From Escherichia phage HC13: a DNA stretch of 39,803 nt. The notes under the pieces were generated by a model that saw only the letters and a list, made by a program, of their open reading frames with translations, was not told where the DNA came from and searched no databases. Positions 2,352 to 39,407 of the stretch are shown here, in pieces. The stretch lies in sequence record OL362276.1; one strand, 5' to 3'. How positions within the stretch are numbered: position 1 is the stretch's first letter; each line of letters begins with the position of its first letter. A program made the position numbers and the translations under genes.

Positions 2352-2677
2352 TGAACAAGTCATACGGGATTAATCTGGTACACTCTATGGACGCAGACAT
2401 GCAAATGTTAAGCCTACTGGCTACCGGGTATCGTCACGGGACGTCAAGTCACTCCGCACGTCAACAGCAGGAGCGGGACCGGGTACTGCAAGCAAGACTC
2501 CGGGCTGAGGGCCATAAGTCCGAACTAATGTGTCTGGCGTATGGTGGACGACCAATCACTGACGATGGTAAACTTTTAGTCTCAGGCTGGAAGGCGATAG
2601 ACCAGCGGTCAACCATCAAGCACACGACTCATGGTGACTTCAGTCATCTCCACGCTAACCCGCTGATATGCAAGTAA
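2351..2677 (+). CDS. Hypothetical early protein (108 aa), occupies the slot of T7 gene 0.7
   Basis: ATG overlaps the previous stop. No kinase motifs. Last ORF before the RNAP gene. Confidence 0.5.
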   Translation: MNKSYGINLVHSMDADMQMLSLLATGYRHGTSSHSARQQQERDRVLQARLRAEGHKSELMCLAYGGRPITDDGKLLVSGWKAIDQRSTIKHTTHGDFSHLHANPLICK

Positions 2678-2682
2678 TTCTG

Positions 2683-2706
2683 ACTTAACTATCACTATAG
2701 GACTCA
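2683..2706 (+). promoter_or_regulatory. Phage RNAP promoter (TTAACTATCACTATAGG, +1 about 2700) upstream of gene 1
   Basis: Matches the 11-copy promoter family in this window. Architecture is that of T7 promoters (..CACTATAG G..). Confidence 0.7.
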
Positions 2707-2774
2707 AGGTCTAAGACTCCAAGTGAAAGACCAAAGAGACTTTAAGTGAAAGACTAATAACAAGGACTTTAAGT

Positions 2775-5456
2775 ATGAGCGTCATCTCTATTGACAAGCA
2801 CGACTTCTCTGATGTGTCGAACGCCATTGAGCCGTTTAACCTACTGGCTGACCACTACGGGCAAGACCTTGCAGTCAAACAGCTTCAGCTTGAGCACGAG
2901 GCATACACTGAAGGCGAGCGACGTTTCATCAAGAACCTTGAGAGACAGACTGAGCGAGGGGAACTGGCAGACAATCAGGTCGCCAAGCCTTTGATGCAGA
3001 CTCTGGTCCCTAAGATTGCGCAAGCCGTCAAGGAGTGGCATGAAGGTCCAGACGGGAAGCTGTCAACCTCTCGTCCTAGCGTAGCGTTCACCGTGTTGAG
3101 CACTGAAGAGAAGGCCGTCAAGGACCGCTCTATGCGCATCTCCTGTGAGTCCGCTGCGGTTATCATACTGAAGGTCATACTCTCCAAGCTGGTCAAGCCT
3201 GAAGGGATACCGATTACACCGATGGCCTCCGCGATAGGTCGCACACTTGAGGACGAAATCCGCTTCGGTCGCATCCGTGACAAAGAGAAAGAGCACTTCA
3301 AGAAGGCGATAGCTGATAACCTGAATAAGCGGGCCGGGGCGTCATACAAGAAAGCCTACATGCAAGCGGTCGAGGCGTCCATGCTGGAGCAAGGCCAACT
3401 GGAAGATGCGTGGGGGACTTGGAGTCCTACAGAGGCTGTCCACGTTGGCATCAAGATGCTCGAGATTGTCATCCAGTCAACACAACTGGTCGAGCTTAAG
3501 CGGTATGGTGCTGGTAATGCAGCGGCTGACGTAGAGATGGTCCACCTGTCAGACTTCTGGGTCAAGAAGATGGCACAACGAGGATTCAGCCTTGCGGGTA
3601 TAGCTCCAGTCTACCAGCCTTGCGTCGTTCCACCTAAGCCGTGGACTGGTGTCGTAGGCGGTGGGTACTGGGCCAAAGGACGCAGACCATTACCACTGAT
3701 TCGCTTAGGGTCTAAGTCTGCGGTAGCACGCTACGAAGACGTGTATATGCCTGAAGTCTATGACGCTGTGAACATCATTCAGAATACACCTTGGAAAGTG
3801 AACAAGAAGGTTCTGGAAGTGGTGAACATGGTCGAGAAGCTGAACAACACGCCTATTGATGACATCCCTCAGATGGAACCGCTGAAGCCTGAGGACTATG
3901 CGGGTGAGACTGAAGAAGAACTCAAGGCATGGAAGAAGGCTGCTGCTGGTATCTATCGCCGCGAGAAGGCCAGACAGTCACGAAGATTGTCACTGAGCTT
4001 TATCGTCAACCAAGCGAACAAGTTCTCTCAGTTCAAGGCCATCTGGTTCCCGTATAACATGGACTGGCGCGGTCGCGTCTACGCTGTGCCGATGTTCAAC
4101 CCTCAGGGTAACGACATGCAAAAGGGTCTTCTGACTCTGGCAGTCGGTAAGCCTATTGGTGCTGATGGTTTCAAATGGCTGAAGGTCCACGGTGCAAACT
4201 GCGCGGGTGTCGATAAAGTCACCTTCGAGGAGCGTATCAAGTGGGTGGAAGATAACCACGACAACATCATGGCTGCTGCCAATGCACCGATGGATAGCAT
4301 TGAGTGGTGGGGCAAGTTAGACTCTCCGTTCTGCTTCCTAGCGTTCTGCTTCGAGTATGCTGGCGTAATGCACCACGGCTTGTCTTACTCCTGCTCGCTG
4401 CCGATAGCGTTCGATGGGTCCTGCTCTGGGATTCAGCACTTCAGCGCTATGCTTCGCGACCACATCGGTGGACATGCAGTAAACCTGACGCCATCCGGTA
4501 AGGTCCAAGACATCTACCGCATCGTGTCTGACCGCATTGAGGAGGAGCTTAAAGTCCTACTGGTTAACGGTACGGACAACGAGATGGTAACTCACGAGGA
4601 CAAGAAAACTGGTGAGATTACCGAGCGTCTCAAGCTGGGGACACGAGAGCTTGCCCGTCAGTGGCTGACCTACGGTATGTCACGAAAGGTCACTAAGCGT
4701 TCGGTCATGACTCTGGCCTACGGGTCGAAAGAGTACGGCTTCGCAGACCAAGTTTACGAGGACATCGTGATGCCAGCGATTGACTCAGGGTCTGGCGCTA
4801 TGTTCACTGAACCAAGCCAAGCATCTCGCTTCATGGCTAAGATGATTTGGGAAGCTGTGAGTGTGACCGTAGTTGCTGCGGTTGACGCGATGAAATGGCT
4901 TCAGGGTGCTGCCAAGCTGCTTGCTGCTGAAGTGAAGGACAAGAAGACTGGAGAAATCCTGAAGCCTTGTCTTCCGGTACACTGGGTCACACCTGATGGT
5001 TTCCCTGTCTGGCAGGAATACCGCAAGAAGGACACCACTCGTCTGAACCTGATGTTCTTAGGGTCATTCAACCTTCAGCCTACCGTCAACAAAGGCACGA
5101 AGAAAGAGCTGGACAAGCACAAGCAGGAGTCAGGCATTAGCCCGAACTTCGTCCACTCACAAGATGGTAGCCACCTGCGGAAGACTGTAGTCCACACTCA
5201 CCGCAAGTATGGCGTGATGTCATTCGCAGTGATTCACGATAGCTTCGGGACCATCCCTGCTGACGCTGAGTATCTGTTCCGTGGTGTCCGTGAGACGATG
5301 GTCGAGACATACCGCGATAACGATGTGCTGCTTGACTTCTACGAGCAGTTTGAATACCAGCTTCATGAAAGCCAGCGCGACAAGTTGCCTGAGCTTCCGA
5401 AGAAAGGTAAACTGAATATCGAAGACATCTTGTCTTCAGACTTTGCATTCGCTTAA
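2775..5456 (+). CDS. 1: Single-subunit DNA-directed RNA polymerase (T7 gene 1 homologue)
   Basis: 893 aa, aligns end to end with T7 RNAP as recalled (ANQFKAIWFPYNMDWRGRVYA, HGANCAGVDK, DGSCSGIQHFSAM, KRSVMTLAYGS, NFVHSQDGSHLR, IHDSFGT, C-terminal SDFAFA). Confidence 0.97.
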   Translation: MSVISIDKHDFSDVSNAIEPFNLLADHYGQDLAVKQLQLEHEAYTEGERRFIKNLERQTERGELADNQVAKPLMQTLVPKIAQAVKEWHEGPDGKLSTSRPSVAFTVLSTEEKAVKDRSMRISCESAAVIILKVILSKLVKPEGIPITPMASAIGRTLEDEIRFGRIRDKEKEHFKKAIADNLNKRAGASYKKAYMQAVEASMLEQGQLEDAWGTWSPTEAVHVGIKMLEIVIQSTQLVELKRYGAGNAAADVEMVHLSDFWVKKMAQRGFSLAGIAPVYQPCVVPPKPWTGVVGGGYWAKGRRPLPLIRLGSKSAVARYEDVYMPEVYDAVNIIQNTPWKVNKKVLEVVNMVEKLNNTPIDDIPQMEPLKPEDYAGETEEELKAWKKAAAGIYRREKARQSRRLSLSFIVNQANKFSQFKAIWFPYNMDWRGRVYAVPMFNPQGNDMQKGLLTLAVGKPIGADGFKWLKVHGANCAGVDKVTFEERIKWVEDNHDNIMAAANAPMDSIEWWGKLDSPFCFLAFCFEYAGVMHHGLSYSCSLPIAFDGSCSGIQHFSAMLRDHIGGHAVNLTPSGKVQDIYRIVSDRIEEELKVLLVNGTDNEMVTHEDKKTGEITERLKLGTRELARQWLTYGMSRKVTKRSVMTLAYGSKEYGFADQVYEDIVMPAIDSGSGAMFTEPSQASRFMAKMIWEAVSVTVVAAVDAMKWLQGAAKLLAAEVKDKKTGEILKPCLPVHWVTPDGFPVWQEYRKKDTTRLNLMFLGSFNLQPTVNKGTKKELDKHKQESGISPNFVHSQDGSHLRKTVVHTHRKYGVMSFAVIHDSFGTIPADAEYLFRGVRETMVETYRDNDVLLDFYEQFEYQLHESQRDKLPELPKKGKLNIEDILSSDFAFA

Positions 5457-5712: not shown

Positions 5713-5928
5713 ATGAAATTTGCACACAAGCATACTGGCGTTAATGGTGGGACTCAAATCGTGACCGTAACAGAACACAACGGCAAGGGTATGGTGAAGA
5801 CCACGGTCATACCTACCGAGATGTCCAAGCAGCTTAACATCCCGTTCAAGACTCTTGTATATCTGGTCGAGTCCAGCCACGAGAAGTACCTGAAGGACGC
5901 AGTGTCCAAGCTGGAGCAGGCCAAATGA
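5713..5928 (+). CDS. Hypothetical protein (71 aa)
   Basis: SD AAGGAGAG upstream of ATG. No recognisable motif. Confidence 0.5.
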   Translation: MKFAHKHTGVNGGTQIVTVTEHNGKGMVKTTVIPTEMSKQLNIPFKTLVYLVESSHEKYLKDAVSKLEQAK

Positions 5929-6002
5929 CAGACATACAGTTACTGGCCCTGTGGCTGGGAGCACTCGCAGTATTCACTTTAATCCAACGCAGAAGAGGTT
6001 AA
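5925..6002 (+). CDS. Small hydrophobic peptide (25 aa)
   Basis: My own translation: MTDIQLLALWLGALAVFTLIQRRRG. ATG overlaps the upstream stop (ATGA). Very short, speculative. Confidence 0.25.
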   Translation: MTDIQLLALWLGALAVFTLIQRRRG

Positions 6003-9858: not shown

Positions 9859-10295
9859 GCAGGGGTCACTCGATAGGAATATACCGTTCCGGCCTTGAGG
9901 CCAAGAACCAAGAGTGGCTAGAGAAGAACGGAGTTAAGGCTGAGTACGAAATGTATAACATTAAGTACACAATACCTGAGTCACTCCATAGTTATTGTCC
10001 AGACTTTGTTCTTCCAAATGGAATCATCGTGGAGACCAAGGGAATCTTCGCAGTCGAAGACCGTAAGAAGCACCTTCTGGTACGCGAACAACACCCAGAG
10101 TTAGACATCCGGTTCGTGTTCTCAAGTTCCCGCTCCAAGTTATACAAAGGGTCTCCGACCACGTATGGCGCATGGTGCGAAAAGAACGGATTTAAGTATG
10201 CCGATAAGTTCATCCCGGTTGAGTGGCTGCGAGAGGCGACTGTACGTCTTCCCTCAGGTATCCTCATCCCCAAGAAGAAAGGAGTTAAGTTATGA
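9840..10295 (+). CDS. 3: Endonuclease I, Holliday-junction resolvase (gene 3)
   Basis: Aligns with T7 endo I (FRSGLE, PDFVLPNGIIVETKG, DRKKHLLVREQHPELDIRFVFSSSRSKLYKGSPT). Confidence 0.92.
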   Translation: MATRNISRGHSIGIYRSGLEAKNQEWLEKNGVKAEYEMYNIKYTIPESLHSYCPDFVLPNGIIVETKGIFAVEDRKKHLLVREQHPELDIRFVFSSSRSKLYKGSPTTYGAWCEKNGFKYADKFIPVEWLREATVRLPSGILIPKKKGVKL

Positions 10296-10516
10296 CTCAA
10301 GAAGTTAAGGTCGTTCGTAAGCGTCTGACCATTGATAAAATCCCGGTAGGCTATGCGTTTATCGTCCACGGTAAGCCGGGTGAAGTGTACGTGAAGATTA
10401 GTAACTCTCACGTCTTCAACCATAAGTTGCTCCAGATGCACACCACTGATGCTAACCGCTTCCAACGTCATCTGAACCTCGTAGCTGTAGAGCTGGTGGT
10501 GTACGATGGTGAGTAA
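10292..10516 (+). CDS. Hypothetical protein (74 aa)
   Basis: Strong SD AAAGGAG seven nt upstream. Sits between endo I and lysozyme; no motif recognised. Confidence 0.5.
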   Translation: MTQEVKVVRKRLTIDKIPVGYAFIVHGKPGEVYVKISNSHVFNHKLLQMHTTDANRFQRHLNLVAVELVVYDGE

Positions 10517-10964
10517 GGTTCAGTTCAACCCACGGTCCCGTACTGACGCTATCTTCGTTCACTGTTCGGCTACAAAGCCAGATATGGACATCGGGGTAGA
10601 GACCATCCGTATGTGGCACAAGCAGCAAGGCTGGCTGGACGTAGGCTACCACTTTATCATCAAGCGCGATGGTACTGTGGAAGAGGGACGCCCTGTCAAT
10701 GTCGTAGGGTCACACGTTAAGGACTGGAACTCACGGTCTGTAGGCGTCTGCCTTGTAGGTGGAATTGACGCTAAGGGCAAGTTTGAAGCTAACTTCACTC
10801 CAGCCCAGATGAACTCCCTGCGCAACAAGCTGGCTGACCTGAAGTCCATGTATCCTCAGGCAGAAATCAAAGCACATCATGATGTAGCACCAAAGGCGTG
10901 TCCAAGTTTCGACTTACAGCGCTGGCTGTCTACCAATGAACTGGTCACTTCCGACCACGGTTAA
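10506..10964 (+). CDS. 3.5: N-acetylmuramoyl-L-alanine amidase / T7 lysozyme (gene 3.5)
   Basis: Near-collinear with T7 lysozyme (DAIFVHCSATKP, WLDVGYHFIIKRDGTVEEGR, GVCLVGGIDAKGKF, HHDVAPKACPSFDL). Confidence 0.95.
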   Translation: MVSKVQFNPRSRTDAIFVHCSATKPDMDIGVETIRMWHKQQGWLDVGYHFIIKRDGTVEEGRPVNVVGSHVKDWNSRSVGVCLVGGIDAKGKFEANFTPAQMNSLRNKLADLKSMYPQAEIKAHHDVAPKACPSFDLQRWLSTNELVTSDHG

Positions 10965-10988
10965 TAAACTCTAAAGGAGAATAACTCA

Positions 10989-11204
10989 ATGATTAAACTT
11001 ATTGAATTTCTTGGTCGTCTGGTGGTGCGTGGTTATCGTCGTGCTGCGGTACTGGAACGAAAGGTAGAAAAGAAGACTGCTGACGGTGCGGCTGATGCTG
11101 CTGCGCTGGCTGACAAGCTGACCATCGCGTCACTGGAAGCTGGAATGAAGGCACGCCAAGCTGACACCAAAGCTGACCAGTTGGCTCAGTTCTTCAAAGA
11201 CTAA
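10989..11204 (+). CDS. Hypothetical protein (71 aa)
   Basis: Good SD. Hydrophobic/basic N-terminus, Ala-rich, C-terminal FFKD. No function inferred. Confidence 0.5.
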   Translation: MIKLIEFLGRLVVRGYRRAAVLERKVEKKTADGAADAAALADKLTIASLEAGMKARQADTKADQLAQFFKD

Positions 11205-11223
11205 ACTATCACCTTAGGGATTG
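11200..11223 (+). promoter_or_regulatory. Variant phage RNAP promoter (TAAACTATCACCTTAGGGA)
   Basis: Family member with two changes in the -5/-4 region. Lies directly upstream of gene 4. Confidence 0.5.
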
Positions 11224-11269
11224 GACCATGAGTCCTTTCCCTTTGTTCGCATTTGTGCTTAAGGAGTGA

Positions 11270-12973
<1,704 letters not shown>

Positions 12974-15808: not shown

Positions 15809-16196
15809 CGGAAAGTCCCTGCATTATACAGGTGCTGCGAGCGAGTTGTATGCGAGCTACCGACTGACGGCTATGGGACACCAAGTCTTCCTACCTGCGT
15901 TCACCCAGTCCAAAGCGGACTTAGTGGTGGATATCAACGGGACCCTTATGAGGGTTCAGGTGAAAACTGGGACCAAGCTGAAGAACTGTAATAGCATTCA
16001 GGTCCGGCTTGGTGGGTGCGGTAAGCCAACTTACAGTCCTGGAGACATCGACCTACTAGCGGTTGTCTATCAGGATTTGCTCTGGCTTATACCGTTCACT
16101 GAAGAGGTTAGAGTCAAGACCTCTATGTGTATAAACTTAACGTCTGACAAGAAGTACGGACAATTTAAACAGGAGAAGACTAATGGCTATTACTAA
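15780..16196 (+). CDS. Hypothetical protein, possible PD-(D/E)xK-like nuclease fold
   Basis: TTG start with SD GGAGGG five nt upstream. Pattern E(22)...ADLVVD...RVQVK resembles restriction-endonuclease-like / Hjc-type cores, with Q in place of the usual acidic residue. Weak inference. Confidence 0.4.
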   Translation: MDQRGKNAIDGKSLHYTGAASELYASYRLTAMGHQVFLPAFTQSKADLVVDINGTLMRVQVKTGTKLKNCNSIQVRLGGCGKPTYSPGDIDLLAVVYQDLLWLIPFTEEVRVKTSMCINLTSDKKYGQFKQEKTNGYY

Positions 16197-16467
16197 ACGT
16201 ATTCGTGTGAGTTTTGATCTGAAGATGGTTGTTAACTCAAAGGAAGAAGATACCATGTGTCGCCAACTGGCTGAGATGACTAAAGCCTACGCTGAGGGTG
16301 AGGAGCTGGATGGTCTTCAGTTGGCTATGGTAAAAACCGCAATCGAGTCAGGCCCTGAGTCTGCCCTTGAAATTGCCCTCAAGAAGACCATCAAGGAGGA
16401 GCTGGTAGACGACTTTGGTTATGGCCAGTTCGGAGTATCTAACCTGCGATTCGAGGTCAAGCAATGA
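16183..16467 (+). CDS. 5.5: gp5.5-like protein
   Basis: N-terminus MAITKRIRVSFDL resembles T7 gp5.5 (MAMTKKFKVSFDV, recollection). Position between gene 5 and 5.7. Confidence 0.55.
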   Translation: MAITKRIRVSFDLKMVVNSKEEDTMCRQLAEMTKAYAEGEELDGLQLAMVKTAIESGPESALEIALKKTIKEELVDDFGYGQFGVSNLRFEVKQ

Positions 16468-16673
16468 GTGAATACTTACGGGTCCTAGCGGCCCTTAAGT
16501 CTTGCCCGAAGACCTTCCAGTCCAACTACGTGCGCAACAATGCGGCACTGGTGGCTGAGGCTGCGAGTCGTGGACATCTGAGCTGTCTGTCTATGGACGG
16601 GCGTAACAACGGTGCGTGGGAGATTACCGCTGCTGGCACCAAGTTCCTGAACCAACATGGAGGATGCCTGTGA
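16464..16673 (+). CDS. 5.7: gp5.7
   Basis: 69 aa, about 80% identical to T7 gp5.7 as recalled (LKSCPKTFQSNYVRNNAALVAEAASRGHLSCL...GGAWEITAAGTKFL). Confidence 0.85.
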   Translation: MSEYLRVLAALKSCPKTFQSNYVRNNAALVAEAASRGHLSCLSMDGRNNGAWEITAAGTKFLNQHGGCL

Positions 16674-17536
16674 GCGAAAAGAAAATAGCTCTGGTTCTTG
16701 ATGGTGACTATCTGGTCTTCTCTTCTATGGCTGCTGCCGAGGACGAGACTGACTGGGGCGATGACATCTGGACCCTTATCTGCGACCATGAGAAGGCTCG
16801 TCGCATCCTTGAGAACACCATCGCTGAAATCGTTAAGAAGCGCAAGGCGTGGAAAGACGCTAAGATTGTGATGTGCTTCACTGACGATTACAACTGGCGT
16901 AAGGACGTCCTGCCTACCTATAAGGCCAACCGTAAAGGTTCTCGCAAGCCTGTAGGTTACAAGAAGTTCGTAGCCGAAGTGATGGCTGACCCACGGTTCA
17001 ACAGCTTCCTGCGTCCTACGCTTGAAGGCGATGATTGTATGGGTATCATCGGGACCAGACCTCAGATTGTAGGCTGTGACCATGCTGTTCTGGTGTCCTG
17101 TGATAAGGACTTCAAGACCATCCCGAACTGTGAGTTCTTCTGGTTAACCACTGGTGAAATCCTGAGTCATACGACTGCTGAGGCAGACTACTGGCACATG
17201 GAGCAGACCATCAAGGGTGACACTACAGATGGCTACGGTGGTATTCCGGGGATGGGTGAGGACACCACTCGTGCATTCCTTGACGAACCGTATTACTTCG
17301 TGCAGGAGAGCCGCGAGCTTAAGACTGGCAAGAACAAAGGCCAGATTAAGACTGAGTGGAAGAAGTATCCGAAGCGTGAAGACATGACGCTGTGGGACTG
17401 CATGGTTACACTGGCTGCTAAGGCTGGCATGACCGAGGAGGAACTTCTGGTCCAAGCTCAGGTCGCTCGTATTTGTCGAGCCTCCGACTATGACCCTAAG
17501 TCCAAGGAGGTCATCCTATGGACACCATCCATGTAA
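16670..17536 (+). CDS. 6: 5'-3' exonuclease (gene 6)
   Basis: Aligns with T7 gp6 (LVLDGDYLVF, CFTDDYNWRK, YKANRK, KKPVGY, CDKDFKTIPNC, TIKGDTTDGY, MTEEEL). I prefer the GTG at 16670 (SD GGAGGA six nt upstream, overlapping the 5.7 stop); the track ORF starts at 16616. Confidence 0.92.
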   Translation: MSEKKIALVLDGDYLVFSSMAAAEDETDWGDDIWTLICDHEKARRILENTIAEIVKKRKAWKDAKIVMCFTDDYNWRKDVLPTYKANRKGSRKPVGYKKFVAEVMADPRFNSFLRPTLEGDDCMGIIGTRPQIVGCDHAVLVSCDKDFKTIPNCEFFWLTTGEILSHTTAEADYWHMEQTIKGDTTDGYGGIPGMGEDTTRAFLDEPYYFVQESRELKTGKNKGQIKTEWKKYPKREDMTLWDCMVTLAAKAGMTEEELLVQAQVARICRASDYDPKSKEVILWTPSM

Positions 17537-30059: not shown

Positions 30060-33000
30060 ATGGCAACACGTGGTGTAAGGAACGCAAACCCCGGGAACCT
30101 CCGTAAGTCCAAAGACCAGTGGGAAGGTGCTATAGGCGATGATGGTGCATTCGTCATCTTCGATAGTCCTGAATCTGGGGTCCGAGCCTTAGCGAAAAAC
30201 CTTCAAAGCTACGGTCGCCAAGGCTATGACTCAATCGAGAAGATTATCAACCGATGGGCGCCACCCAGCGAGAACGACACTCAGTCCTACATCAACTCTG
30301 TTGTGGCTGCGACTGGTATTCCAGCAACCCAAAGTATCGACTTGACGAACCCTGATGTCCTCGCCGCTCTGTCTGAGGCTATCGGCTACCATGAGACAGG
30401 CTCCCGGTACGACCCAGAAGTCTATCAGAAGGGAGTCGCAAGAGCACTCAATGGCATTAGCCCAAAGACTCCACCAGTAAGCGCTAACGTATTTGACGCA
30501 CTCACGGAAGGACTCAAGGCTAAACCTAAAGTAGCTCTTGGTGAGAACCTTCCGACCGCTGCTGGTATGAACATTGAGGGTCAAGCACCTGAAGCTCCCA
30601 ACGAATCGTTCGGTGAGATGTTCTATAAGGCTACTGGCGAGACCATGCAGGAACGAGAGGATCGCTCTACGTGGTTCGGTTTCGGTGCGGCTACAGAAGC
30701 TGAAGTGAAGAACTCTATGGTCGGCGTGGCTATCAGAGCTGGTCAGACTGAGGACTCACTTGATGTCATTGGCGATGTGTTCAACCCTACCCGCTGGAAC
30801 AACCATAAGTGGACTCGTGAAGAGCTGGACCAGATTCGTAACGCTGGGGTTCTGCCTCAGTATTACGGAGTCATTACTGGCGGTTCTCCTCAGAATCTGA
30901 CAGAGCTGATTAACTTGGCGTTGGAGAACCAGAAGTTGGACCAAGAGAAGGCCAAGGCTGGGACTGGTGCTCAGTTAGCAGCTGGTGTGATTGGTGCTGG
31001 TGTAGACCCGCTGACCTACGTTCCTATCGCTGGACAGGTTGGCAAAGGTGCGAAGCTGGTCAACAAGATGTTCACCGTGGCTGCTCAATCTGGAGCACTT
31101 GCTGGTGTATCAGAGATGGCCCGTACCTCAGTGGCTGGTGGTGATGCTCATGTGGCTGAAGCTATCCTTGGTGGTGCCCTCTTTGGTGGTGGTATGACTG
31201 CCATCGCTGATGGGTTAGGCAGAGCCTTAGGTCGCAACACTAATGAGTTTGCTGGCCCAGCTACACGTCTGGAAGCTCGTGAGACCGCTCGTAACGTTGA
31301 TGGTCAGGACCTGTCTCGTCTGCCTATTCAGGAAGGTGAGCAGACATTTAGTCATCAAGGCGTTAAGTTCGCTGACGTTCCTAATGAGCCGGGAAGTGTA
31401 CGATTAGAAGACGGTTCAATCCTGATTGGTGAGAACCCTCTGAACCCTAAGACACGTCAAGTCTTTGACGAAGTGATTGAGCCGGAACGGGCAGCTGCTG
31501 GCGTGAACCTTGGCGGACTTACCGAGATTGGTCTGAAGCTGCTTCGGTCTGAGAACCCGGAGATTCGTGGAGTAGCTGCTGACTTAGTGCGTTCACCGAC
31601 TGGTATGCAGTCTGGGGCTTCAGGTAAAATCGGGACCACTGCGTCTGACGTATTCGAGAGACTTCGTGCTGTAGACCATCGGTTCTACAACGACATCGAC
31701 GATGCTGTTACTGAGGCACTCAAGGACCCTTACTTCCAGACAGCATTCTGGCGAGACTCTGGCGCATTCCGTCAGGACATCTACCAGCGTGTGTCTATGG
31801 CTATTGAAGACGGAAGTGGGAACCTGAAGGCTGAACTGACTCCTGGAGAACTGAAAGTCTATGACCTGCTGAAGAACCAGTTTGACGCCAAGCGTGAGAT
31901 GATGGAGAACCCGGCGATGTTTGGTCGCCCAGACGCTCAGTCTATCTTTCCGGGTAGCCGCTTCAAGGGAACATACGTCCCGCATGTGTATAGCAACCAG
32001 ATGAAGGAGCTGTACATCAAGGAGCTTGGGAGTCCAGAGGCGTTGCAGGAGGCCATCAAGAAGTCATGGTTGACCAGCTATGCGTCTCGACCTGAAGTCA
32101 AGAAACGCGTGGACGAGGCACTCTTAGAGGCTGACCCTACGTTGACCCCAGAAGGACTTGCTGCTGCGGTCGATAAGTACGCCAACGATAAGGCTTACGG
32201 TATCTCTCACACCGAGCAGTTCGAGCGTTCATCCGTAATGGAAGAGAACATCAATGGTCTGGTGGGTCTGGAGAACAACAGCTTCCTTGAGGCCCGTAAC
32301 CTGTTCGATAGCGATATGTCAATCGTCCTACCTAACGGTCAGACCTTCAGTGTCAACAACCTGCGTGAGTGGGACATGGACAAGATTGTCCCGGCCTACA
32401 ACCGTCGAGTTAATGGCGATATTGCTATCATGGCTGGTACAGGCAAGACCACGAAGGACATGAAGGACTTGGTTGAGACCCTGATGAACAAGGCTGGGGA
32501 TGACGGTAAGTTGAAAGGTGAAGTATCTACCTTACGTGACACTTTGAAGATTCTAACTGGTCGTGCTCGACGTGATGGTGCTGATGATGCGGCCTTCGCT
32601 ACCGTGATGCGCACAATGACAGACCTATCGTTCTTCGCTAAGAATGCCTACATGGGTGTTCAGAACTTAACGGAGATTGGTGGTATGCTGGCTCGTGGTA
32701 ACGTTCGTGCAATGCTTCATGGAGTCCCAATTTTCCGTGACTTAGCCTTCCGTAACAAGAAGGTTGGGGCCTCAGAGATTAAGGACCTGCACAATGTTAT
32801 CTTCGGTAAGGAACTTGATGACTCAATCCGTCCGTCTAAACAGGATGTCATTGACCGTCTGCGATCTTACAGTGACCTCGGTCGTGGTACAGCTACAGCT
32901 CTGGGGACTGCCAAGTATTACACTGGCGAACTTGCAGTACGCTCTCCGTTCACTAAAGTCCTCAACGGTACGACCAACTACCTGTTAGATGCTGGACGTC

Positions 33001-33947
33001 AGGGCTTCCTGTCTGACATCGTGGAGCATAGCCTGACTGGTAGTAAGCGTAAGTTCGATGACCGCTGGCTGAAGACCGCTAGTATCTCTGACGAGCAGTG
33101 GAAGGGCATTAAGTCCCTAATCCGTGAGTCAGTGACTCGTGGTCCAGACGGGAAGTACACCATCAAGGATAAGAAGGCGTTCAGTCAGGACCCAAGGGCT
33201 ATGGACCTCTGGCGTATGGGTGACACCATCGCTGATGAGACCCTGCTCCGTCCCCACAAGCTGAGCAACATGGACGCCAAGGCTTATGGTCCGATAGCGA
33301 AGACTGTCTTGCAGTTTAAGAACTTCGTTATCAAGTCTATCAACGGTCGAACCATGCGTACCTTCTACAATGCCACCAAGAACAACCGAGCTATGGACGC
33401 TGCGCTGTCAACGGTTATGTCTATGGGTCTGGCTGGAATGTACTACATGGCTCAGGCGCACATAAAGGCTTACGCTATGCAGGACGGTCGTGACCGAGAG
33501 TATCTGAAGCAAGCCCTTAACCCAACAATGATTGGCTATGCGGCGCTGTCCCGTAGCTCCCACTTAGGTGGTCCTCTTGGGGTCGCCAACATTCTGGGTG
33601 GAATCGCTGGGTATGAGGACACTAAGATGCTCCGCTCGTCAATCCTTCCGCGCTCACCTACCGAGAAGACGGAGAAGCCAATCGCCTTTGGTGCTGCTTC
33701 CAGTGGTCCGGTAATGAATGTGGTCGGCAACTTCCTTGAGCAGGTCCCGGCTTTCGGCTATGCTGCTAACGTTGGTGCTACGGCTTACAACTTGGCGGGA
33801 TACCTCAAGGCTGATACCCGTGTCAACGAGCGAGACTACATGACCGGGATGTATAACACGTTCCGTGAACTTGTACCGAATGACCCGATTACCCAGAAGT
33901 TGCTGCTTGGAACGTTTGAGGAGCAGGGCATCCACATCAAGGACTAA
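30060..33947 (+). CDS. 16: Internal virion protein C with N-terminal lytic transglycosylase-like domain (gene 16)
   Basis: 1295 aa (T7 gp16 about 1318 aa). N-terminus GVRNANPGNLR...GYHETGSRYD is typical of the gp16 peptidoglycan-hydrolase region. Confidence 0.85.
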   Translation: MATRGVRNANPGNLRKSKDQWEGAIGDDGAFVIFDSPESGVRALAKNLQSYGRQGYDSIEKIINRWAPPSENDTQSYINSVVAATGIPATQSIDLTNPDVLAALSEAIGYHETGSRYDPEVYQKGVARALNGISPKTPPVSANVFDALTEGLKAKPKVALGENLPTAAGMNIEGQAPEAPNESFGEMFYKATGETMQEREDRSTWFGFGAATEAEVKNSMVGVAIRAGQTEDSLDVIGDVFNPTRWNNHKWTREELDQIRNAGVLPQYYGVITGGSPQNLTELINLALENQKLDQEKAKAGTGAQLAAGVIGAGVDPLTYVPIAGQVGKGAKLVNKMFTVAAQSGALAGVSEMARTSVAGGDAHVAEAILGGALFGGGMTAIADGLGRALGRNTNEFAGPATRLEARETARNVDGQDLSRLPIQEGEQTFSHQGVKFADVPNEPGSVRLEDGSILIGENPLNPKTRQVFDEVIEPERAAAGVNLGGLTEIGLKLLRSENPEIRGVAADLVRSPTGMQSGASGKIGTTASDVFERLRAVDHRFYNDIDDAVTEALKDPYFQTAFWRDSGAFRQDIYQRVSMAIEDGSGNLKAELTPGELKVYDLLKNQFDAKREMMENPAMFGRPDAQSIFPGSRFKGTYVPHVYSNQMKELYIKELGSPEALQEAIKKSWLTSYASRPEVKKRVDEALLEADPTLTPEGLAAAVDKYANDKAYGISHTEQFERSSVMEENINGLVGLENNSFLEARNLFDSDMSIVLPNGQTFSVNNLREWDMDKIVPAYNRRVNGDIAIMAGTGKTTKDMKDLVETLMNKAGDDGKLKGEVSTLRDTLKILTGRARRDGADDAAFATVMRTMTDLSFFAKNAYMGVQNLTEIGGMLARGNVRAMLHGVPIFRDLAFRNKKVGASEIKDLHNVIFGKELDDSIRPSKQDVIDRLRSYSDLGRGTATALGTAKYYTGELAVRSPFTKVLNGTTNYLLDAGRQGFLSDIVEHSLTGSKRKFDDRWLKTASISDEQWKGIKSLIRESVTRGPDGKYTIKDKKAFSQDPRAMDLWRMGDTIADETLLRPHKLSNMDAKAYGPIAKTVLQFKNFVIKSINGRTMRTFYNATKNNRAMDAALSTVMSMGLAGMYYMAQAHIKAYAMQDGRDREYLKQALNPTMIGYAALSRSSHLGGPLGVANILGGIAGYEDTKMLRSSILPRSPTEKTEKPIAFGAASSGPVMNVVGNFLEQVPAFGYAANVGATAYNLAGYLKADTRVNERDYMTGMYNTFRELVPNDPITQKLLLGTFEEQGIHIKD

Positions 33948-33966
33948 ACTATCACTATAGGAAACT
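33943..33966 (+). promoter_or_regulatory. Phage RNAP promoter (TAAACTATCACTATAGG, +1 about 33960)
   Basis: Promoter-family match. Position equals T7 phi17. Confidence 0.8.
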
Positions 33967-34011
33967 GGAGGCGCTACCATAGGTCTCCGTTTAAATCACA
34001 AAGGAGGCATA

Positions 34012-36192
34012 ATGTCCACGATTACACAATTCCCTTCAGGAAACACTCAGTACAGGATAGAGTTCGACTACCTAGCCAGAACGTTTGTTGTTGTTACGCT
34101 GGTGAATAGCTCTAACCCTACCCTGAACCGTGTACTGGAAGTTGGTAGAGATTACCGATTCCTTAATCCAACGATGATTGAGATGTTGGCTGACCAATCA
34201 GGTTTCGACATCGTTCGTATTCACCGTCAGACTGGAACTGACTTAGTGGTAGACTTCAGGAATGGCTCAGTGTTGACAGCTAGTGACCTGACCAATTCAG
34301 AGCTTCAGGCTATCCATATTGCAGAAGAAGGTCGAGACCAAACGGTTGACTTAGCGAAGGAATATGCCGATGCTGCTGGTAGCTCTGCGGGCAACGCTAA
34401 GGATAGCGAGGACGAAGCACGCCGAATCGCTGCGAGTATCAAGGCAGCTGGTAAAATTGGCTATATTACCCGTCGCTCCTTCGAGAAAGGCTTCAACGTT
34501 ACAACATGGAACGAGGTCCTGCTATGGGAAGAGGATGGTGATTATTACCGCTGGGATGGTACGCTTCCAAAGAACGTTCCCGCTGGTTCAACTCCTGAAT
34601 CATCTGGTGGTATTGGGCTGAGTGCGTGGGTTAGTGTTGGTGATGCGTCACTTAGAGCAAACCTGTCTGATAGTGATGGCGCTAAATACATAGGCAGTGG
34701 AGAAAGGACATTACTTGAGCACAACAATGATGTTTTGCACTCAAAAGACTTCCCAACACTGCAGGCAGCTATAGATGCATCTTTGCAAAAAAATGATCTA
34801 CTGGTGTCTCCTGGAAATTATACTGAAAAAGTTACTATTGGAAACGCGCAGTTAAAAGGTGTTGGCGGGGCCACGGTACTAAAAACTCCGGCAGACTTTA
34901 CAAACACTGTTCAGGTTAATTTAGCTACACCTCATTGGCAATTCCGCCATAGTGGTGGTTTTGCTATAGATGGTTCCGGGACAACCGGGGTCGTAGGTAT
35001 TAGTTTTGACCCGTCAGACCAATATTCCGGACGTCATAATTTTAGTGATGTATACATCCACAACATCAACAAGGCCATTCAGAAGCCTTCCGGGAACATC
35101 GGCAATACTTGGAGAAATATTGGGATATCTACGTGTGATTGGGGGTATTACGCGATTAGTGGCTCAGAGACGCATTGCGGGGCCGATACCCTCTACAATA
35201 TCCACTTCGATGGCATCTCCACCTATGCAGTCTATCTAGACGGCACTGTCGATAATGGCGGGGTTGGCGCATGGTGGCTTAAAGACTCCATTATTGAGGC
35301 TTCCGGAGGTGGCGGGATATACTTAAAAAGTAAATCGGGCGACTGTCCTACATCTCCATGCGGGGTATCCAATATATGGATGGAAGCGATCGCAACATCA
35401 CCGGCTGTTCAGGTAGACGGCGTGGCGCAAAAACCGCGAGTTCTCAAGTTGGTAGACACAGCGATATTCTTTGCTGAGTATTCTTATCTCAACAACATCG
35501 AGCTATCCAACTCCAACTTAGTAACTTATGGTTGCCGTTTTGACAACGCTGATGGCAATCAGGATATTGTCGTGGATGCACAAAGTACCATTGTAGCCCA
35601 TGACGTGTATTTAAACGGCAGTTCTGGAAAGGACGTTATTGTGGAGTCCGTAGCATCGCAATCTGCAACGATAGCTACCACAAACTTATCTCTGAGGGGC
35701 AACTTAACAAGAGGGAGAGTATTTAATACGCCGACAGGGAATAAATTAATGGCTATCACATTTGACTCAGGTAGCCATAATTTTTCTGGCAGCGGCACCG
35801 TTAACGGTTCGACTGTATCTGACGGACTTCACGCCGCTACATGTACCGAATTTTCATTCCCCGGAGCCGGTTTATATGAAATGGTAGCGACAAGAACAAC
35901 CATTACATCCGGTAGATGGTACGTGTGGGGAGTTAACTCACGCCTACAATCTGGCTCGGCGGATATTAGTATAACGTCAGGTATTACCATGGGTAGTGTT
36001 TACACAAAGCAGGGGGAGTGGATTAGCACTTTCGGTGTAGGAAAGGCATCTACCACTGGCACTGTAGCGCTATACGTTTCCACAGGAGGAGGTTCGGGAG
36101 CTACGGTCAGATTCAGTGACTTTTTCATCGCTGAGTTTACGACGCAAGCTCAGGCTTTAGCTTTCGCCAATTCAAGGATGTCGTTATCATAA
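34012..36192 (+). CDS. 17: Tail fibre/tailspike: T7 gp17-like N-terminal anchor fused to a divergent C-terminal receptor-binding domain
   Basis: N-terminal about 150 aa (YRIEFDYLARTFVVVTL..., RFLNPT, LVVDFRNGSVLTASDL, QAIHIAEEGRD) match the T7 gp17 N-terminus. From about residue 225 the sequence is unrelated to T7, Gly/Ser/Thr/Asn-rich and AT-richer at the nucleotide level. Confidence 0.85.
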   Translation: MSTITQFPSGNTQYRIEFDYLARTFVVVTLVNSSNPTLNRVLEVGRDYRFLNPTMIEMLADQSGFDIVRIHRQTGTDLVVDFRNGSVLTASDLTNSELQAIHIAEEGRDQTVDLAKEYADAAGSSAGNAKDSEDEARRIAASIKAAGKIGYITRRSFEKGFNVTTWNEVLLWEEDGDYYRWDGTLPKNVPAGSTPESSGGIGLSAWVSVGDASLRANLSDSDGAKYIGSGERTLLEHNNDVLHSKDFPTLQAAIDASLQKNDLLVSPGNYTEKVTIGNAQLKGVGGATVLKTPADFTNTVQVNLATPHWQFRHSGGFAIDGSGTTGVVGISFDPSDQYSGRHNFSDVYIHNINKAIQKPSGNIGNTWRNIGISTCDWGYYAISGSETHCGADTLYNIHFDGISTYAVYLDGTVDNGGVGAWWLKDSIIEASGGGGIYLKSKSGDCPTSPCGVSNIWMEAIATSPAVQVDGVAQKPRVLKLVDTAIFFAEYSYLNNIELSNSNLVTYGCRFDNADGNQDIVVDAQSTIVAHDVYLNGSSGKDVIVESVASQSATIATTNLSLRGNLTRGRVFNTPTGNKLMAITFDSGSHNFSGSGTVNGSTVSDGLHAATCTEFSFPGAGLYEMVATRTTITSGRWYVWGVNSRLQSGSADISITSGITMGSVYTKQGEWISTFGVGKASTTGTVALYVSTGGGSGATVRFSDFFIAEFTTQAQALAFANSRMSLS

Positions 36193-36336
36193 AAACAACC
36201 TCAGCCGAATCGGGTTATTTATCATCAGAACGGTATTGAATCATCGAAGGTTGTGGAGGTAGAGGCTAACTACACGTTGACCAACGTATGATAACAACTT
36301 TGGGTCACGGACGACCCGCTTTAAACTGGAGGTTTT

Positions 36337-36531
36337 ATGATTGAGTTAGACTTCAAGAATGAGGTCCTCAAAGCCTCGCCTATCGTCGGGACCGCTGCGG
36401 CTGATGGTGCCAGTCGGTTCTTCTTTGGGCTAACGCTCAACGAATGGTTCTACGTCGCTGCTATCGCGTACACCGTGGTGCAGATTGGCGTCCTAATTTA
36501 CAAGACGATTAAGAGCGGAGGTAAGACATGA
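36337..36531 (+). CDS. 17.5: Class II holin (gene 17.5)
   Basis: Aligns with T7 holin (LDFKNEVLKASPIVGT, FFFGLTLNEWFYVAAIAYTVVQIG). Confidence 0.9.
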   Translation: MIELDFKNEVLKASPIVGTAAADGASRFFFGLTLNEWFYVAAIAYTVVQIGVLIYKTIKSGGKT

Positions 36532-36791
36532 CGCAGATGGACTTAGAGAAGTTCCTGTTAATGCTGGACACAGAACGTGCTAGACTAATGCTTCAAGACC
36601 TGCGGGATGACTCTAAGCGTTCGCCCCAGCTCTACAACGCCATTGAGAAGCTACTGGCTCGTCACAACTTCGTGCTAAGCAAGGTGTCTGTTGACGAGAA
36701 GACGCTCGCTGATATGGAGGCCCTGAACGCAGAGTACGATAAGGTGCTCTCCGCTACGGAAGATAATGACACTGGATATGGAGTGCAGTAA
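36528..36791 (+). CDS. 18: Terminase small subunit (gene 18)
   Basis: Aligns with T7 gp18 as recalled (FLLMLDTERARLMLQDL, RSPQLYNAIEKLL). Confidence 0.8.
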   Translation: MTQMDLEKFLLMLDTERARLMLQDLRDDSKRSPQLYNAIEKLLARHNFVLSKVSVDEKTLADMEALNAEYDKVLSATEDNDTGYGVQ

Positions 36792-36800
36792 ATCTATTAA

Positions 36801-36855
36801 GTGTTAGACTCAAGGTCATTACTGTATGTAGTGGCCTTTATGGTTAACACTAACT
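36801..36855 (+). promoter_or_regulatory. Putative RNase III processing hairpin (R18.5-like)
   Basis: GUGUUAGAC...AAGGUCAU / GUGGCCUU...GGUUAACAC. Same upper stem as 6022 and 13150; lower stem differs but still pairs (covariation). Confidence 0.45.
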
Positions 36856-36901
36856 AGTGGAGGAGACTCTACGTGAAATCTGATAAACCGGGAGGGCAAC
36901 T

Positions 36902-37351
36902 ATGCTCGAATTTTTAAAGAGAGCGGCTCCGTGGTTACTTGCAGCAGTGATGTTTGCTGGTGGCTACCACACCGCTAACAATAAGTGGGAGGCTAAGGTC
37001 AATGCAGAATACACCACGAATCTTAAGGCATCGGAGGATACAAGACTTGCTGTCCAAGCTGAAGTCAACAAAGTGTCCAAACGGTTTCAGGACGAAATGT
37101 CCTCGCTGGAAGGCAGCACTGATAGGATTATTGCTGACCTTCAGTCTGACAATAAGCGGTTGCGCATCCGAGTCAAACCAACGAGTGGAACCACGCAAAG
37201 TGACGGTCGATGCTTCATTGATGGTTACGCCGAACTTGACGAACGAGATGCTAAACGTCTTATCGCCATCGGAGTGAAAGGAGACAAGTGGATTAAGGCC
37301 CTTCAGGACACTGTGAGAGCCTTGCAGCAAGATAAGGAGGTGAAGCATTGA
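36902..37351 (+). CDS. 18.5: Rz-like i-spanin (gene 18.5)
   Basis: Aligns with T7 gp18.5 (MLEFL, N-terminal [45 protein letters not shown]). Confidence 0.88.
37047..37277 (+). CDS. Candidate Rz1-like o-spanin lipoprotein embedded in Rz (+1 frame); start codon uncertain
   Basis: Embedded +1-frame ORF with signal-like [23 protein letters not shown] and lipobox Cys codon at 37161-37163. No in-frame ATG near the signal, so TTG at 37047 is only a guess. The mature part is not proline-rich. Confidence 0.4.
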   Translation: MLSKLKSTKCPNGFRTKCPRWKAALIGLLLTFSLTISGCASESNQRVEPRKVTVDASLMVTPNLTNEMLNVLSPSE

Positions 37352-39111
37352 GTAAAGACTTAGTGGCGCGTCAGGCGCTAATGACTGCACGTATGAAGGC
37401 AGACTTCGTGTTCTTCATCTTCGTTCTCTGGAAAGCACTAAGCCTTCCGGTTCCAACCCGCTGCCAGATAGATATGTGTAAGAAGCTGGCTGCTGGTGAT
37501 AATCGCCGCTTCATCCTTCAGGCTTTCCGTGGTATTGGCAAGTCATTTCTGACCTGTGGCTTTGTGGTCTGGAAGCTATGGAACAACCCAGACTTGAAGT
37601 TCATGATTGTGTCGGCCTCAAAGGAGCGAGCCGATGCTAACTCCATCTTCATCAAGCGAATCATCGACCTCATGCCTCAGCTTCAGGAACTCAAACCTAA
37701 GCAGGGACAGCGAGATGCGGTTATTAGCTTCGACGTGGGACCTGCCAAGCCAGACCACTCACCTTCGGTTAAGTCCGTTGGTATCACTGGTCAGTTGACT
37801 GGTAGTCGTGCTGACATCCTGATTGCCGATGACGTGGAGGTTCCGAACAACTCAGCGACTCAGGCTGCACGAGACCGTCTATCAGAGCTTGTGAAAGAGT
37901 TCGACGCTATCCTGAAGCCGGGAGGTACGATCATCTATCTGGGTACTCCTCAGAACGAGATGACCCTGTACCGTGAGCTGGAAGGTCGTGGGTACACCAC
38001 TACTATCTGGCCCGCTCGTTATCCACGCGACAGGAAGGACTGGCAGTCTTACGGCGACCGTCTGGCTCCTATGCTTCAGGAAGAGCTGGAAGAGGACCCT
38101 GAGTCCTTCTACTGGCGTCCGACTGATGAAGTACGCTTCGATGATACGGACCTGAAGGAACGTGAGCTGTCCTACGGTAAAGCTGGCTTCGCTCTACAGT
38201 TCATGCTTAACCCGAACCTGAGTGATGCCGAGAAGTACCCTCTGAAGCTCCGTGACCTTATCGTAGCCGACTTGGACCCAGCGTCCAGCCCAATGGTCTA
38301 CCAATGGTTGCCGAACCCTCAGAACAAGCGTGAGGACGTTCCTAACGTTGGACTCATGGGTGACTCGTACCACACGTATCAGACTGTAGGTTCTGCCTTC
38401 AGTTCTTACACCCAGAAGATTCTGGTCATTGACCCTAGTGGTCGTGGTAAGGATGAGACTGGTTATGCGGTACTGTACCAGCTCAACGGCTACATCTTCG
38501 CTATGGAAGTTGGTGGTATGCGTGGTGGGTATGAAGACTCTACGCTGGAAGCACTGGCTAAGATTGGCCGTAAGTGGAAGGTCAACGAATACGTCATTGA
38601 GGGTAACTTCGGTGATGGTATGTACCTTGAGCTATTCAAGCCTGTAGCGGCCCGTATACATCCTGCTGCTGTAACTGAAGTGAAGAGTAAGGGTCAGAAA
38701 GAACTCCGCATCTGTGACGTTCTGGAGCCTATCATGGGGTCTCACCGACTTATCATCAACGCTGCTGCTATCGTCCAAGACTACCAGTCGGCCTCTGATA
38801 AGGATGGTGTTCGTAACCCTATCTACTCTCTCTTCTACCAGATGACACGTATCTCTCGTGAACGTGGAGCCTTGGCACACGATGACCGACTTGATGCGCT
38901 GGCTATCGGTGTACAGTTCTTCGTTGAGTCTATGGCTAAGGATGCCAACAAAGGCGAACGTGAAGTCACTGAGGAGTGGCTGGAGGAACAGATGGAGAAC
39001 CCACGGAAAGGCTTCGAGTCCATCCACACTGAGTTCTGGGACAATGGGGTCCGGGTAACTCACGATACGGACGACGAGCTGGGACTAGGGTCATACGTTA
39101 CGTTCCACTAG
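37348..39111 (+). CDS. 19: Terminase large subunit (gene 19)
   Basis: Collinear with T7 gp19 ([93 protein letters not shown]). TTG start with SD AAGGAGG seven nt upstream, overlapping the Rz stop. Confidence 0.96.
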
Positions 39112-39205
39112 CTGAATGAATAACTATAGGCGAAAACTGAGTTAATAAGCAGTTAGTAACCTATAGTTACTACCAGTCTAACCTACTGTTTTACAAGGAG
39201 TTTGG

Positions 39206-39229
39206 ACTTAACTATCACTATAGGGAAGA
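39206..39229 (+). promoter_or_regulatory. Phage RNAP promoter (TTAACTATCACTATAGGGAAGA, +1 about 39223), phiOR-like
   Basis: Promoter-family match near the right end, where T7 has phiOR. Confidence 0.8.
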
Positions 39230-39407
39230 CCCCCGGTTACTTATAGTATTACTATAGTGAATATACATATGCAGACTTTATGCAAGACCTTAGGAGGCAG
39301 ACTCCGAGTTCTTACCTAAGGCTTGCACCGATGGGAGGAGGTGATATTAATCATAATACCTCCAATACAGATAGTCACAGACCATAGATACAGGAGGTAT
39401 GTAGCAT

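Follow-up and report, generated by a model that had tools for sequence, protein, structure and literature searches.

What does the receptor-binding protein of a T7-like phage owe to its own lineage, and what did it take from elsewhere? Gene 17 of Escherichia phage HC13 (record OL362276.1) raises this question. It is a single long open reading frame (ORF) on the + strand, at positions 34012-36192 of the window, i.e., the whole stretch of 39,803 nucleotides analyzed here, and encodes a 726-residue product, gp17. An earlier note, made from the letters alone, held that gp17 is a mosaic in which a T7-type anchor is fused to a foreign C-terminal domain. Our reading, to which we assign a probability of about 0.85, is that this Kayfunavirus gene encodes a T7-type anchor, a Tail_spike_N domain and a recombined cassette, made of a β-helix and a β-sandwich resembling carbohydrate-binding modules (CBMs), that likely binds and probably cleaves the O25b O-antigen. 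The mosaic is real, but it has been described before: the gene is nearly the same as gene 17 of LM33_P1, a published O25b-specific therapeutic phage.

Two Junctions Delimit an Exchangeable Cassette

The breakpoints were taken from local blastn alignments of positions 33001-37500 to fetched loci of related phages, which place them more sharply than composition does. Identity to K1F, pO91 and Vec13 stops at 34646, to Baskent_phicoli_1 at 34658 and to CLB_P1 at 34682; it returns from 36246 in K1F and Vec13, 36244 in pO91, 36251 in Baskent_phicoli_1 and 36212 in CLB_P1. These five Kayfunaviruses are 91-97% identical to HC13 before the left break and 92-94% after the right break, and similarity inside is nil. 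At the protein level, K1F gp17 is 92% identical over residues 1-224 and unrelated beyond, as expected of the mosaic that had been proposed.

The interior of the gene finds its relatives in other phage groups. Homology to the tailspike genes of Kagunavirus phiEc4, a P22-like prophage and Kuravirus ES17 begins in all three at exactly 34675, extending to 36194, 2 nucleotides beyond the stop codon, in phiEc4 (88.3% nucleotide identity), to 35939 in the prophage (83.4%) and to 35567 in ES17 (71.9%). The exchangeable receptor-binding cassette, defined by this homology to foreign tailspikes and by its foreign codon usage, thus spans residues 222-726 (34675..36194, + strand). Its left junction (34646..34682, +; residues 212-224, ...DASLRANLSDSDGA) is where Kayfunavirus homology ends and foreign-tailspike homology starts; its right junction (36195..36251, +) lies in the 3' spacer, between the end of Kagunavirus homology and the return of the Kayfunavirus backbone. 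The start that the earlier note had set at 34690 was right to within about 10-40 nucleotides of the breakpoints at 34646-34682 and 34675, but its extension of the foreign tract to 36300 was not borne out: the tract ends at 36194-36211, within about 20 nucleotides of the stop codon. The AT-richness of 36212-36300 falls outside the insert, because the spacer is 92-94% identical to that of other Kayfunaviruses from 36212-36251 on. A weak hairpin in this spacer sits where CLB_P1 carries a G+C-rich one.

Alignment of the left junctions shows the anchors coming together at a short common motif, LSxxDGA(K), and the cassette joins at the DGAK codons behind every anchor aligned. LSxxDGA is probably motif one of a published survey of tailspike exchange (PMC10408124). 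Conserved junction motifs have been reported missing from Lederbergvirus and Uetakevirus prophages (PMC10408124); the P22-like prophage copy (fetched locus 10001-11935) has the DGAK junction too. On alignment to window positions 34570-34690, the Kagunavirus (fetched locus 5900-5990) and Kuravirus (4880-4965) anchors display about 20 extra residues, GASLVSFxNGNxVExLS, just upstream of the DGAK junction, so that the leucine/serine junction motif is effectively doubled there.

Codon Usage Sets the Cassette Apart

The C-terminal part had been described as visibly AT-richer from 34690 onward. The drop is real, from a G+C fraction (GC) of 0.485 in 34012-34689 to 0.463 in 34690-36192 (0.5006 in the whole window), but it is small: the latter value lies at the 1.5th percentile of all 1503-nucleotide windows and is not the genome minimum, region 1-1500 being lower. 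Raw GC was therefore dropped as chief evidence in favor of tests of synonymous choice within amino acids, in which the C part of gene 17 was compared with 31 backbone genes (10,029 codons).

These tests bear out the claim that codon usage is non-uniform across the gene, with AAA, TTA and AAT up and CTG down in the C part. Lysine is encoded by AAA in 65% of cases vs 23% in the backbone (p=2e-4), asparagine by AAT in 48% vs 22% (p=1e-3), phenylalanine by TTT in 57% vs 19% (p=8e-5) and arginine by AGA or AGG in 64% vs 13% (p=9e-6). Among leucine codons, TTA rises to 40% from 10% while CTG falls to 10% from 39% (p=2e-7, all leucine codons tested together); among isoleucine codons, ATA accounts for 28% vs 11% (p=6e-3, all isoleucine codons tested together). 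GC at third codon positions (GC3) is 0.434 in the C part vs 0.558 in the backbone, and gene 17 as a whole has the lowest value, 0.438, among 32 genes. Of 776 windows of 100 codons scored by their fit to backbone codon choice, the 25 with the lowest scores fell without exception within gene 17, with starts at 34612-35722, and a two-segment fit placed the change in codon usage at codon 203 (nucleotide 34621), with 3 of 500 permutations doing equally well. The assignment of the first ~225 codons to the backbone holds by their 91-97% Kayfunavirus identity and their backbone-like lysine, asparagine, leucine and phenylalanine codons, though their GC3, 0.447, is low as well.

Carriers and Origin of the Cassette

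At least five distinct N-terminal anchors carry the cassette, with the join always at the DGAK codons, in line with the horizontal acquisition that the earlier note had proposed. In Kagunavirus tailspikes of 661 residues it is 90-92% identical in amino acid sequence, in P22-type tailspikes with a Head_binding domain (PF09008; 644-646 residues) 63-83%, in the fibers of ES17, myPSH1131 and myPSH2311 (1021 residues in ES17) 64%, and in further proteins of 748 and 842 residues, whose N termini are different again, 44-62%. The same cassette passes between the tailspikes of Kayfunavirus, Kagunavirus, Kuravirus and P22-like prophages. By megablast, the anchor is conserved in 187 phage records that match the gene 17 region, and 11 of the 187 cover the whole gene; the census of anchors uses this megablast count, and a word-indexed protein search gave mostly short fragments.

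Full-length relatives are close: gene 17 is 99.1-99.7% identical at the nucleotide level to its counterparts in LM33_P1, 6925, HC12, 22664BS1, 101136BS1, 101118UKE1 and others. The gene together with its 3' spacer (34012-36336) retains 99.1-99.7% identity to LM33_P1, 6925 and HC12, whereas over window positions 9001-34000 even the best-matching phages, 6925 and HC12 among them, reach only 94-96%; it appears that all of gene 17 was exchanged, or was swept, later than the backbone.

Where the cassette is at home is suggested by its composition in other carriers. In Kagunavirus its GC3 is 0.427 vs 0.545 for the N part of the same gene, so neither lytic backbone seems to be its home, and Kagunavirus was rejected as donor, the cassette being compositionally foreign there too. 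In the P22-like prophage its GC3, 0.372, resembles that of its neighbors (0.33-0.59), and the low GC3 of the cassette in the lytic phages (0.43) comes close to the 0.33-0.37 of a P22-like prophage tailspike region. One P22-type copy lies within a P22-like prophage that has gp7, gp20 and gp16, with an integrase gene and chromosomal fad genes adjacent. These observations hint at a reservoir of temperate phages and prophages that supplies host-range modules to lytic therapeutic phages. Among 5,426 complete E. coli genomes, megablast with the cassette found no match, and blastn found one P22-like copy of 66% identity and one short fragment.

A 70%-identical copy of the tailspike module also occurs at 15821-16915 of GenBank MZ417522.1, a 24,953-bp record named 'Mycolicibacterium phage J1'. 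As an E. coli module is implausible in a mycobacteriophage, mislabelling or contamination of this record is probable.

Architecture of the Anchor

Gene 17 follows the modular pattern of Kayfunaviruses, in which the anchor of ~220 residues is conserved and the gene is flanked by gene 16 and the holin gene 17.5. In HC13 a gene 16 homologue (30060-33947) precedes it, and a 64-residue holin-like ORF at the 17.5 position begins at 36337. PHROG 27367 ('tail fiber protein') matches gp17 end to end (1-726 of 736 profile positions, E=0), and is the sole PHROG to match when the C part is taken by itself; together with the LM33_P1-type identity, this match identifies the 34012..36192 ORF (+) as a tailspike, or receptor-binding protein. 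Promoter and terminator scans of 33900-36400 revealed nothing exceeding shuffled expectation.

The anchor had been called T7-type, and its beginning is. Phage_T7_tail (PF03906) matches residues 10-115 (Pfam, E=2.9e-16), and the T7 gp17 chains 7boz (553 residues), 8dsp and 8e4g in the PDB align to residues 6-116 only, delimiting a tail-attachment domain (residues 1-~116) that, with the Ala/Glu-rich helical linker following it to residue ~150, occupies 34012..34461 (+). The anchor is not purely T7-type, though: its second part, residues 151-211 (34462..34644, +), is a Tail_spike_N domain (PF18668, E=1.4e-19), and CBA120 TSP1, TSP3 and TSP4 and other tailspikes in the PDB align to residues 145-233. 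The DNA of this segment is still backbone by Kayfunavirus identity. A near-identical anchor is present in PDB entry 9vvr, whose 18 chains are consistent with six trimers and say nothing of how the cassette assembles; gp17 would presumably form homotrimers.

Anchors of this kind also carry other cargo. Protein P0059 of Salmonella phage ST59 combines a 94% identical anchor with PF03629 (sialate O-acetylesterase), and Morganella protein P0074, related through its Tail_spike_N part (64% over 33% of the query), bears a GDSL/SGNH esterase domain; catalytic types besides β-helices can therefore be attached to such anchors.

Predicted Fold of the Cassette

An AlphaFold2 model of gp17 residues 226-726, built from 33 homologues, has a mean predicted local distance difference test (pLDDT) score of 92.1 and a predicted template modelling (pTM) score of 0.87. 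Being a monomer model, it cannot place an active site. In gp17 numbering, the model comprises a capping helix at 250-256, a long series of short strands at ~261-563 (34792..35700, +), a β-sandwich at ~611-709 (35842..36138, +; strands at fragment residues 386-484) and a terminal helix at 712-721 (fragment residues 487-496). Foldseek matched it with probability 1.0 to tailspikes and depolymerases in the PDB, namely K2-2 TSP, CBA120 TSP4, KP32gp38, Depo32, Sf6, P22 and HK620, and gave local matches of the last domain to the CBM4-2 and CBM22 carbohydrate-binding modules, with TM scores of 0.49-0.61 normalized to the target. Residues 226-726 are thus modelled as a right-handed parallel β-helix followed by a CBM-like β-sandwich. 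This upholds the earlier guess of a β-helix tailspike; the three peptides on which that guess had drawn lie at residues 396-411, 434-443 and 495-515.

That the C part bears no resemblance to the T7 fiber was likewise correct. T7 gp17 matches residues 6-116 alone, and the rest is modelled as β-helix plus β-sandwich, with no T7-like coiled-coil shaft or tip domain. Pfam found no K1F-type sialidase β-propeller, C-terminal chaperone or Peptidase_S74 in gp17, and similarity to K1F is absent past residue 224. A PDB sequence search with the C part returned no solved relative, or matched only the anchors of aligned homologues.

The cassette itself contains a second mosaic seam, in window positions 35500-36192 (residues ~500-726). 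A Kuravirus-type homologue (P0028) is 88-95% identical over residues 246-485 but just 35-50% over residues 566-726; since the C-terminal part thus diverges apart from the β-helix, the β-helix and the β-sandwich can move separately.

Receptor, Specificity and Activity

The specificity of LM33_P1 reportedly depends on lipopolysaccharide (LPS). The most likely target of gp17 is the O25b O-antigen, and the case for it comes from host metadata and the LM33_P1 literature.

The isolation host of LM33_P1 was an ST131-O25b:H4 strain (PMC5434335), and the phage lyses O25b strains whether they belong to ST131 or to ST69 (PMC5388864). The Kayfunaviruses 22664BS1, 101136BS1 and 101118UKE1 and the Kagunavirus 22664BS2 all come from O25b-positive hosts (PMC8614997), and their modules are 99% identical to that of gp17 in the three former and 90% in the latter. 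22664BS1 and 22664BS2 were isolated on one and the same strain, and the plaquing host ranges of the four phages are nearly equal: 42% for 22664BS1, 44% for 101136BS1, 41% for 101118UKE1 and 43% for 22664BS2 (PMC8614997). The role of host-range determinant, which the earlier note had assigned to this domain, thus finds support in the isolation of module-bearing phages of different genera on O25b-positive E. coli (PMC8614997, PMC7885116, PMC5388864).

The domain probably also cleaves the O25b O-antigen, i.e., acts as a depolymerase. E458, D511 and D522 do not vary among homologues, even those of only 34% identity; this is suggestive, for the three would fit a glycosidase site, although conservation is not proof. 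The fold alone does not separate a hydrolase, lyase, esterase or binder.

Several observations weigh against this reading of specificity and activity. Pfam and NCBIfam searches with residues 235-726 gave nothing significant and no catalytic family. The only hint of an enzyme in the sequence is a pectinesterase match, non-significant at E=0.12, that covers only a generic N-terminal cap motif. For the ES17 tail fiber, binding of heparan sulfate was detected and cleavage was not (PMC7885116). The near absence of the cassette from the 5,426 E. coli genomes makes the O-type of the prophage hosts unreadable, and the O25b specificity of gp17 is a prediction from host metadata.

These points leave room for other explanations. 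The cassette may be a non-catalytic adhesin or a glycan modifier, such as an O-acetyl esterase acting on Rha2Ac of O25b, that binds reversibly and does not depolymerize; we consider this possible though doubtful. It would accord with the lack of a recognized glycosidase or lyase family, the binding-only result for ES17-TFP (PMC7885116), the SGNH or sialate-O-acetylesterase domains on other proteins with such an anchor and the occurrence of esterases among β-helix folds, pectin methylesterase 2ntb being one of the Foldseek matches, alongside the weak pectinesterase match. That sequence match is confined to the cap motif, however, the phage proteins nearest to the cassette in structure are depolymerases and tailspikes that cleave, and the invariance of E458, D511 and D522 is as expected of a glycosidase site. 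A target in the capsule (a K antigen such as K5 heparosan) or on the host, such as the heparan sulfate proposed for the ES17 fiber, appears unlikely: the K5 lyase ranks just 39th among generic β-helix matches, LM33_P1-type phages track the O25b type across ST131 and ST69 (PMC5388864), the isolation hosts of module carriers are all O25b-positive (PMC8614997), and Kuravirus-type homologues, at 35-50% identity in their C-terminal third, may differ in specificity. We hold with equal reserve the idea, drawn by analogy with the 64%-identical ES17 relative, that the cassette might also bind mammalian glycans (heparan sulfate, mucin) and so be a dual bacterial and mucosal adhesin; if it did, a module present in at least four phage groups would position ST131-killing phages on gut or urinary epithelium.

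An origin in place, with the compositional change due to the amino acid content of a β-helix or to selection for slow translation, would dispense with transfer altogether. The C part is indeed rich in Gly, Ser, Thr, Ala and Val, GC at first and second codon positions differs from the backbone, and the N part has a low GC3 too. Yet the differences reside in synonymous choice within amino acids, and in five sister phages the sequence enclosed by the two breakpoints is unrelated. The same DNA, at 72-88% identity and from the same start nucleotide, occurs in three unrelated phage groups, which refutes evolution in place and leaves it hardly any credence next to recombination.

Proposed Mode of Action and Implications

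Under the reading that we prefer, an O25b-directed, probably cleaving tailspike, gp17 would be fixed to the tail via its T7-type N terminus (residues 1-~150), presumably as trimers. The cassette would have been installed by recombination at the conserved anchor-end motif on the left and at the stop codon or spacer (36194-36251) on the right, probably during co-infection of O25b hosts or in exchange with resident prophages. The β-helix would bind O25b O-antigen repeats of E. coli ST131 and ST69 and probably cut them; cutting would let the virion descend through the LPS and reach the outer membrane, at which the T7-type machinery could eject the DNA.

The cassette would decide which E. coli get killed, most likely those of the pandemic O25b lineages ST131 and ST69. 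Its presence on podovirus, siphovirus and P22-like anchors marks it as portable, and the breakpoints at 34646-34682 and 36194-36251 offer ready splice points for host-range engineering.

Elsewhere in the window, the lowest GC of its 3' part (0.39 in a 300-nucleotide window) occurs at 39100-39400, downstream of the large terminase gene; this is presumably the non-coding right end.

Comparison With Known Systems

K1F, the type Kayfunavirus, has the same anchor (92% over residues 1-224), gene position and flanks, but its C part is the K1 capsule endosialidase, unrelated to the gp17 cassette. T7 gp17 shares the N-terminal tail-binding domain; HC13 gp17 lacks its coiled-coil shaft and tip and has a predicted β-helix instead. 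The combination of an anchor with a β-helix receptor-binding domain is that of the P22, Sf6, HK620 and CBA120 tailspikes.

Kagunavirus tailspikes (vB_EcoS-phiEc4, Golestan, 22664BS2) share the cassette from the DGAK codons to the stop, at 86.6-88.7% nucleotide and 90-92% amino acid identity, as well as O25b-positive isolation hosts (PMC8614997); their 156-residue anchor is unrelated and suits a siphovirus tail. The Kuravirus ES17 tail fiber is 64% identical over gp17 residues 218-725 but is 1021 residues long, with another N-terminal part of 500 residues and a far more divergent C-terminal third. Binding of heparan sulfate and mucin has been reported for it, and its likeness to LM33_P1 was remarked upon (Green et al., 2021, PMC7885116).

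That tailspikes are exchanged as modules is well established, so the general phenomenon is not new in kind. O-antigen-specific tailspikes have been described as exchanged among Kayfuna-, Kaguna- and Lederbergviruses, with conserved motifs before and after the domain (Virol J 2023, PMC10408124); O25 and LM33_P1 lie outside the coverage of that survey. In CLB_P1 (fetched locus 2501-4779), the receptor-binding protein is split into a 325-residue adaptor, gp17, and a separate 430-residue gp17.1, as was also remarked upon there (PMC10408124); the same anchor therefore serves fused and docked receptor-binding domains.

The closest known system is gene 17 of LM33_P1 (Kayfunavirus LM33P1; Dufour et al., 2016, J Antimicrob Chemother 71:3072), with 99.5% nucleotide identity over the gene and 3' spacer, 99.0% amino acid identity in the C part, the same architecture and the same neighbors, gene 16 and the holin gene. 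The remainder of the window reaches only about 94-96% identity to its best-matching phages, so that HC13 is another isolate with essentially the same gene 17. Given this 99.5% identity and the exchange already described among genera, gene 17 of HC13 represents a known case.

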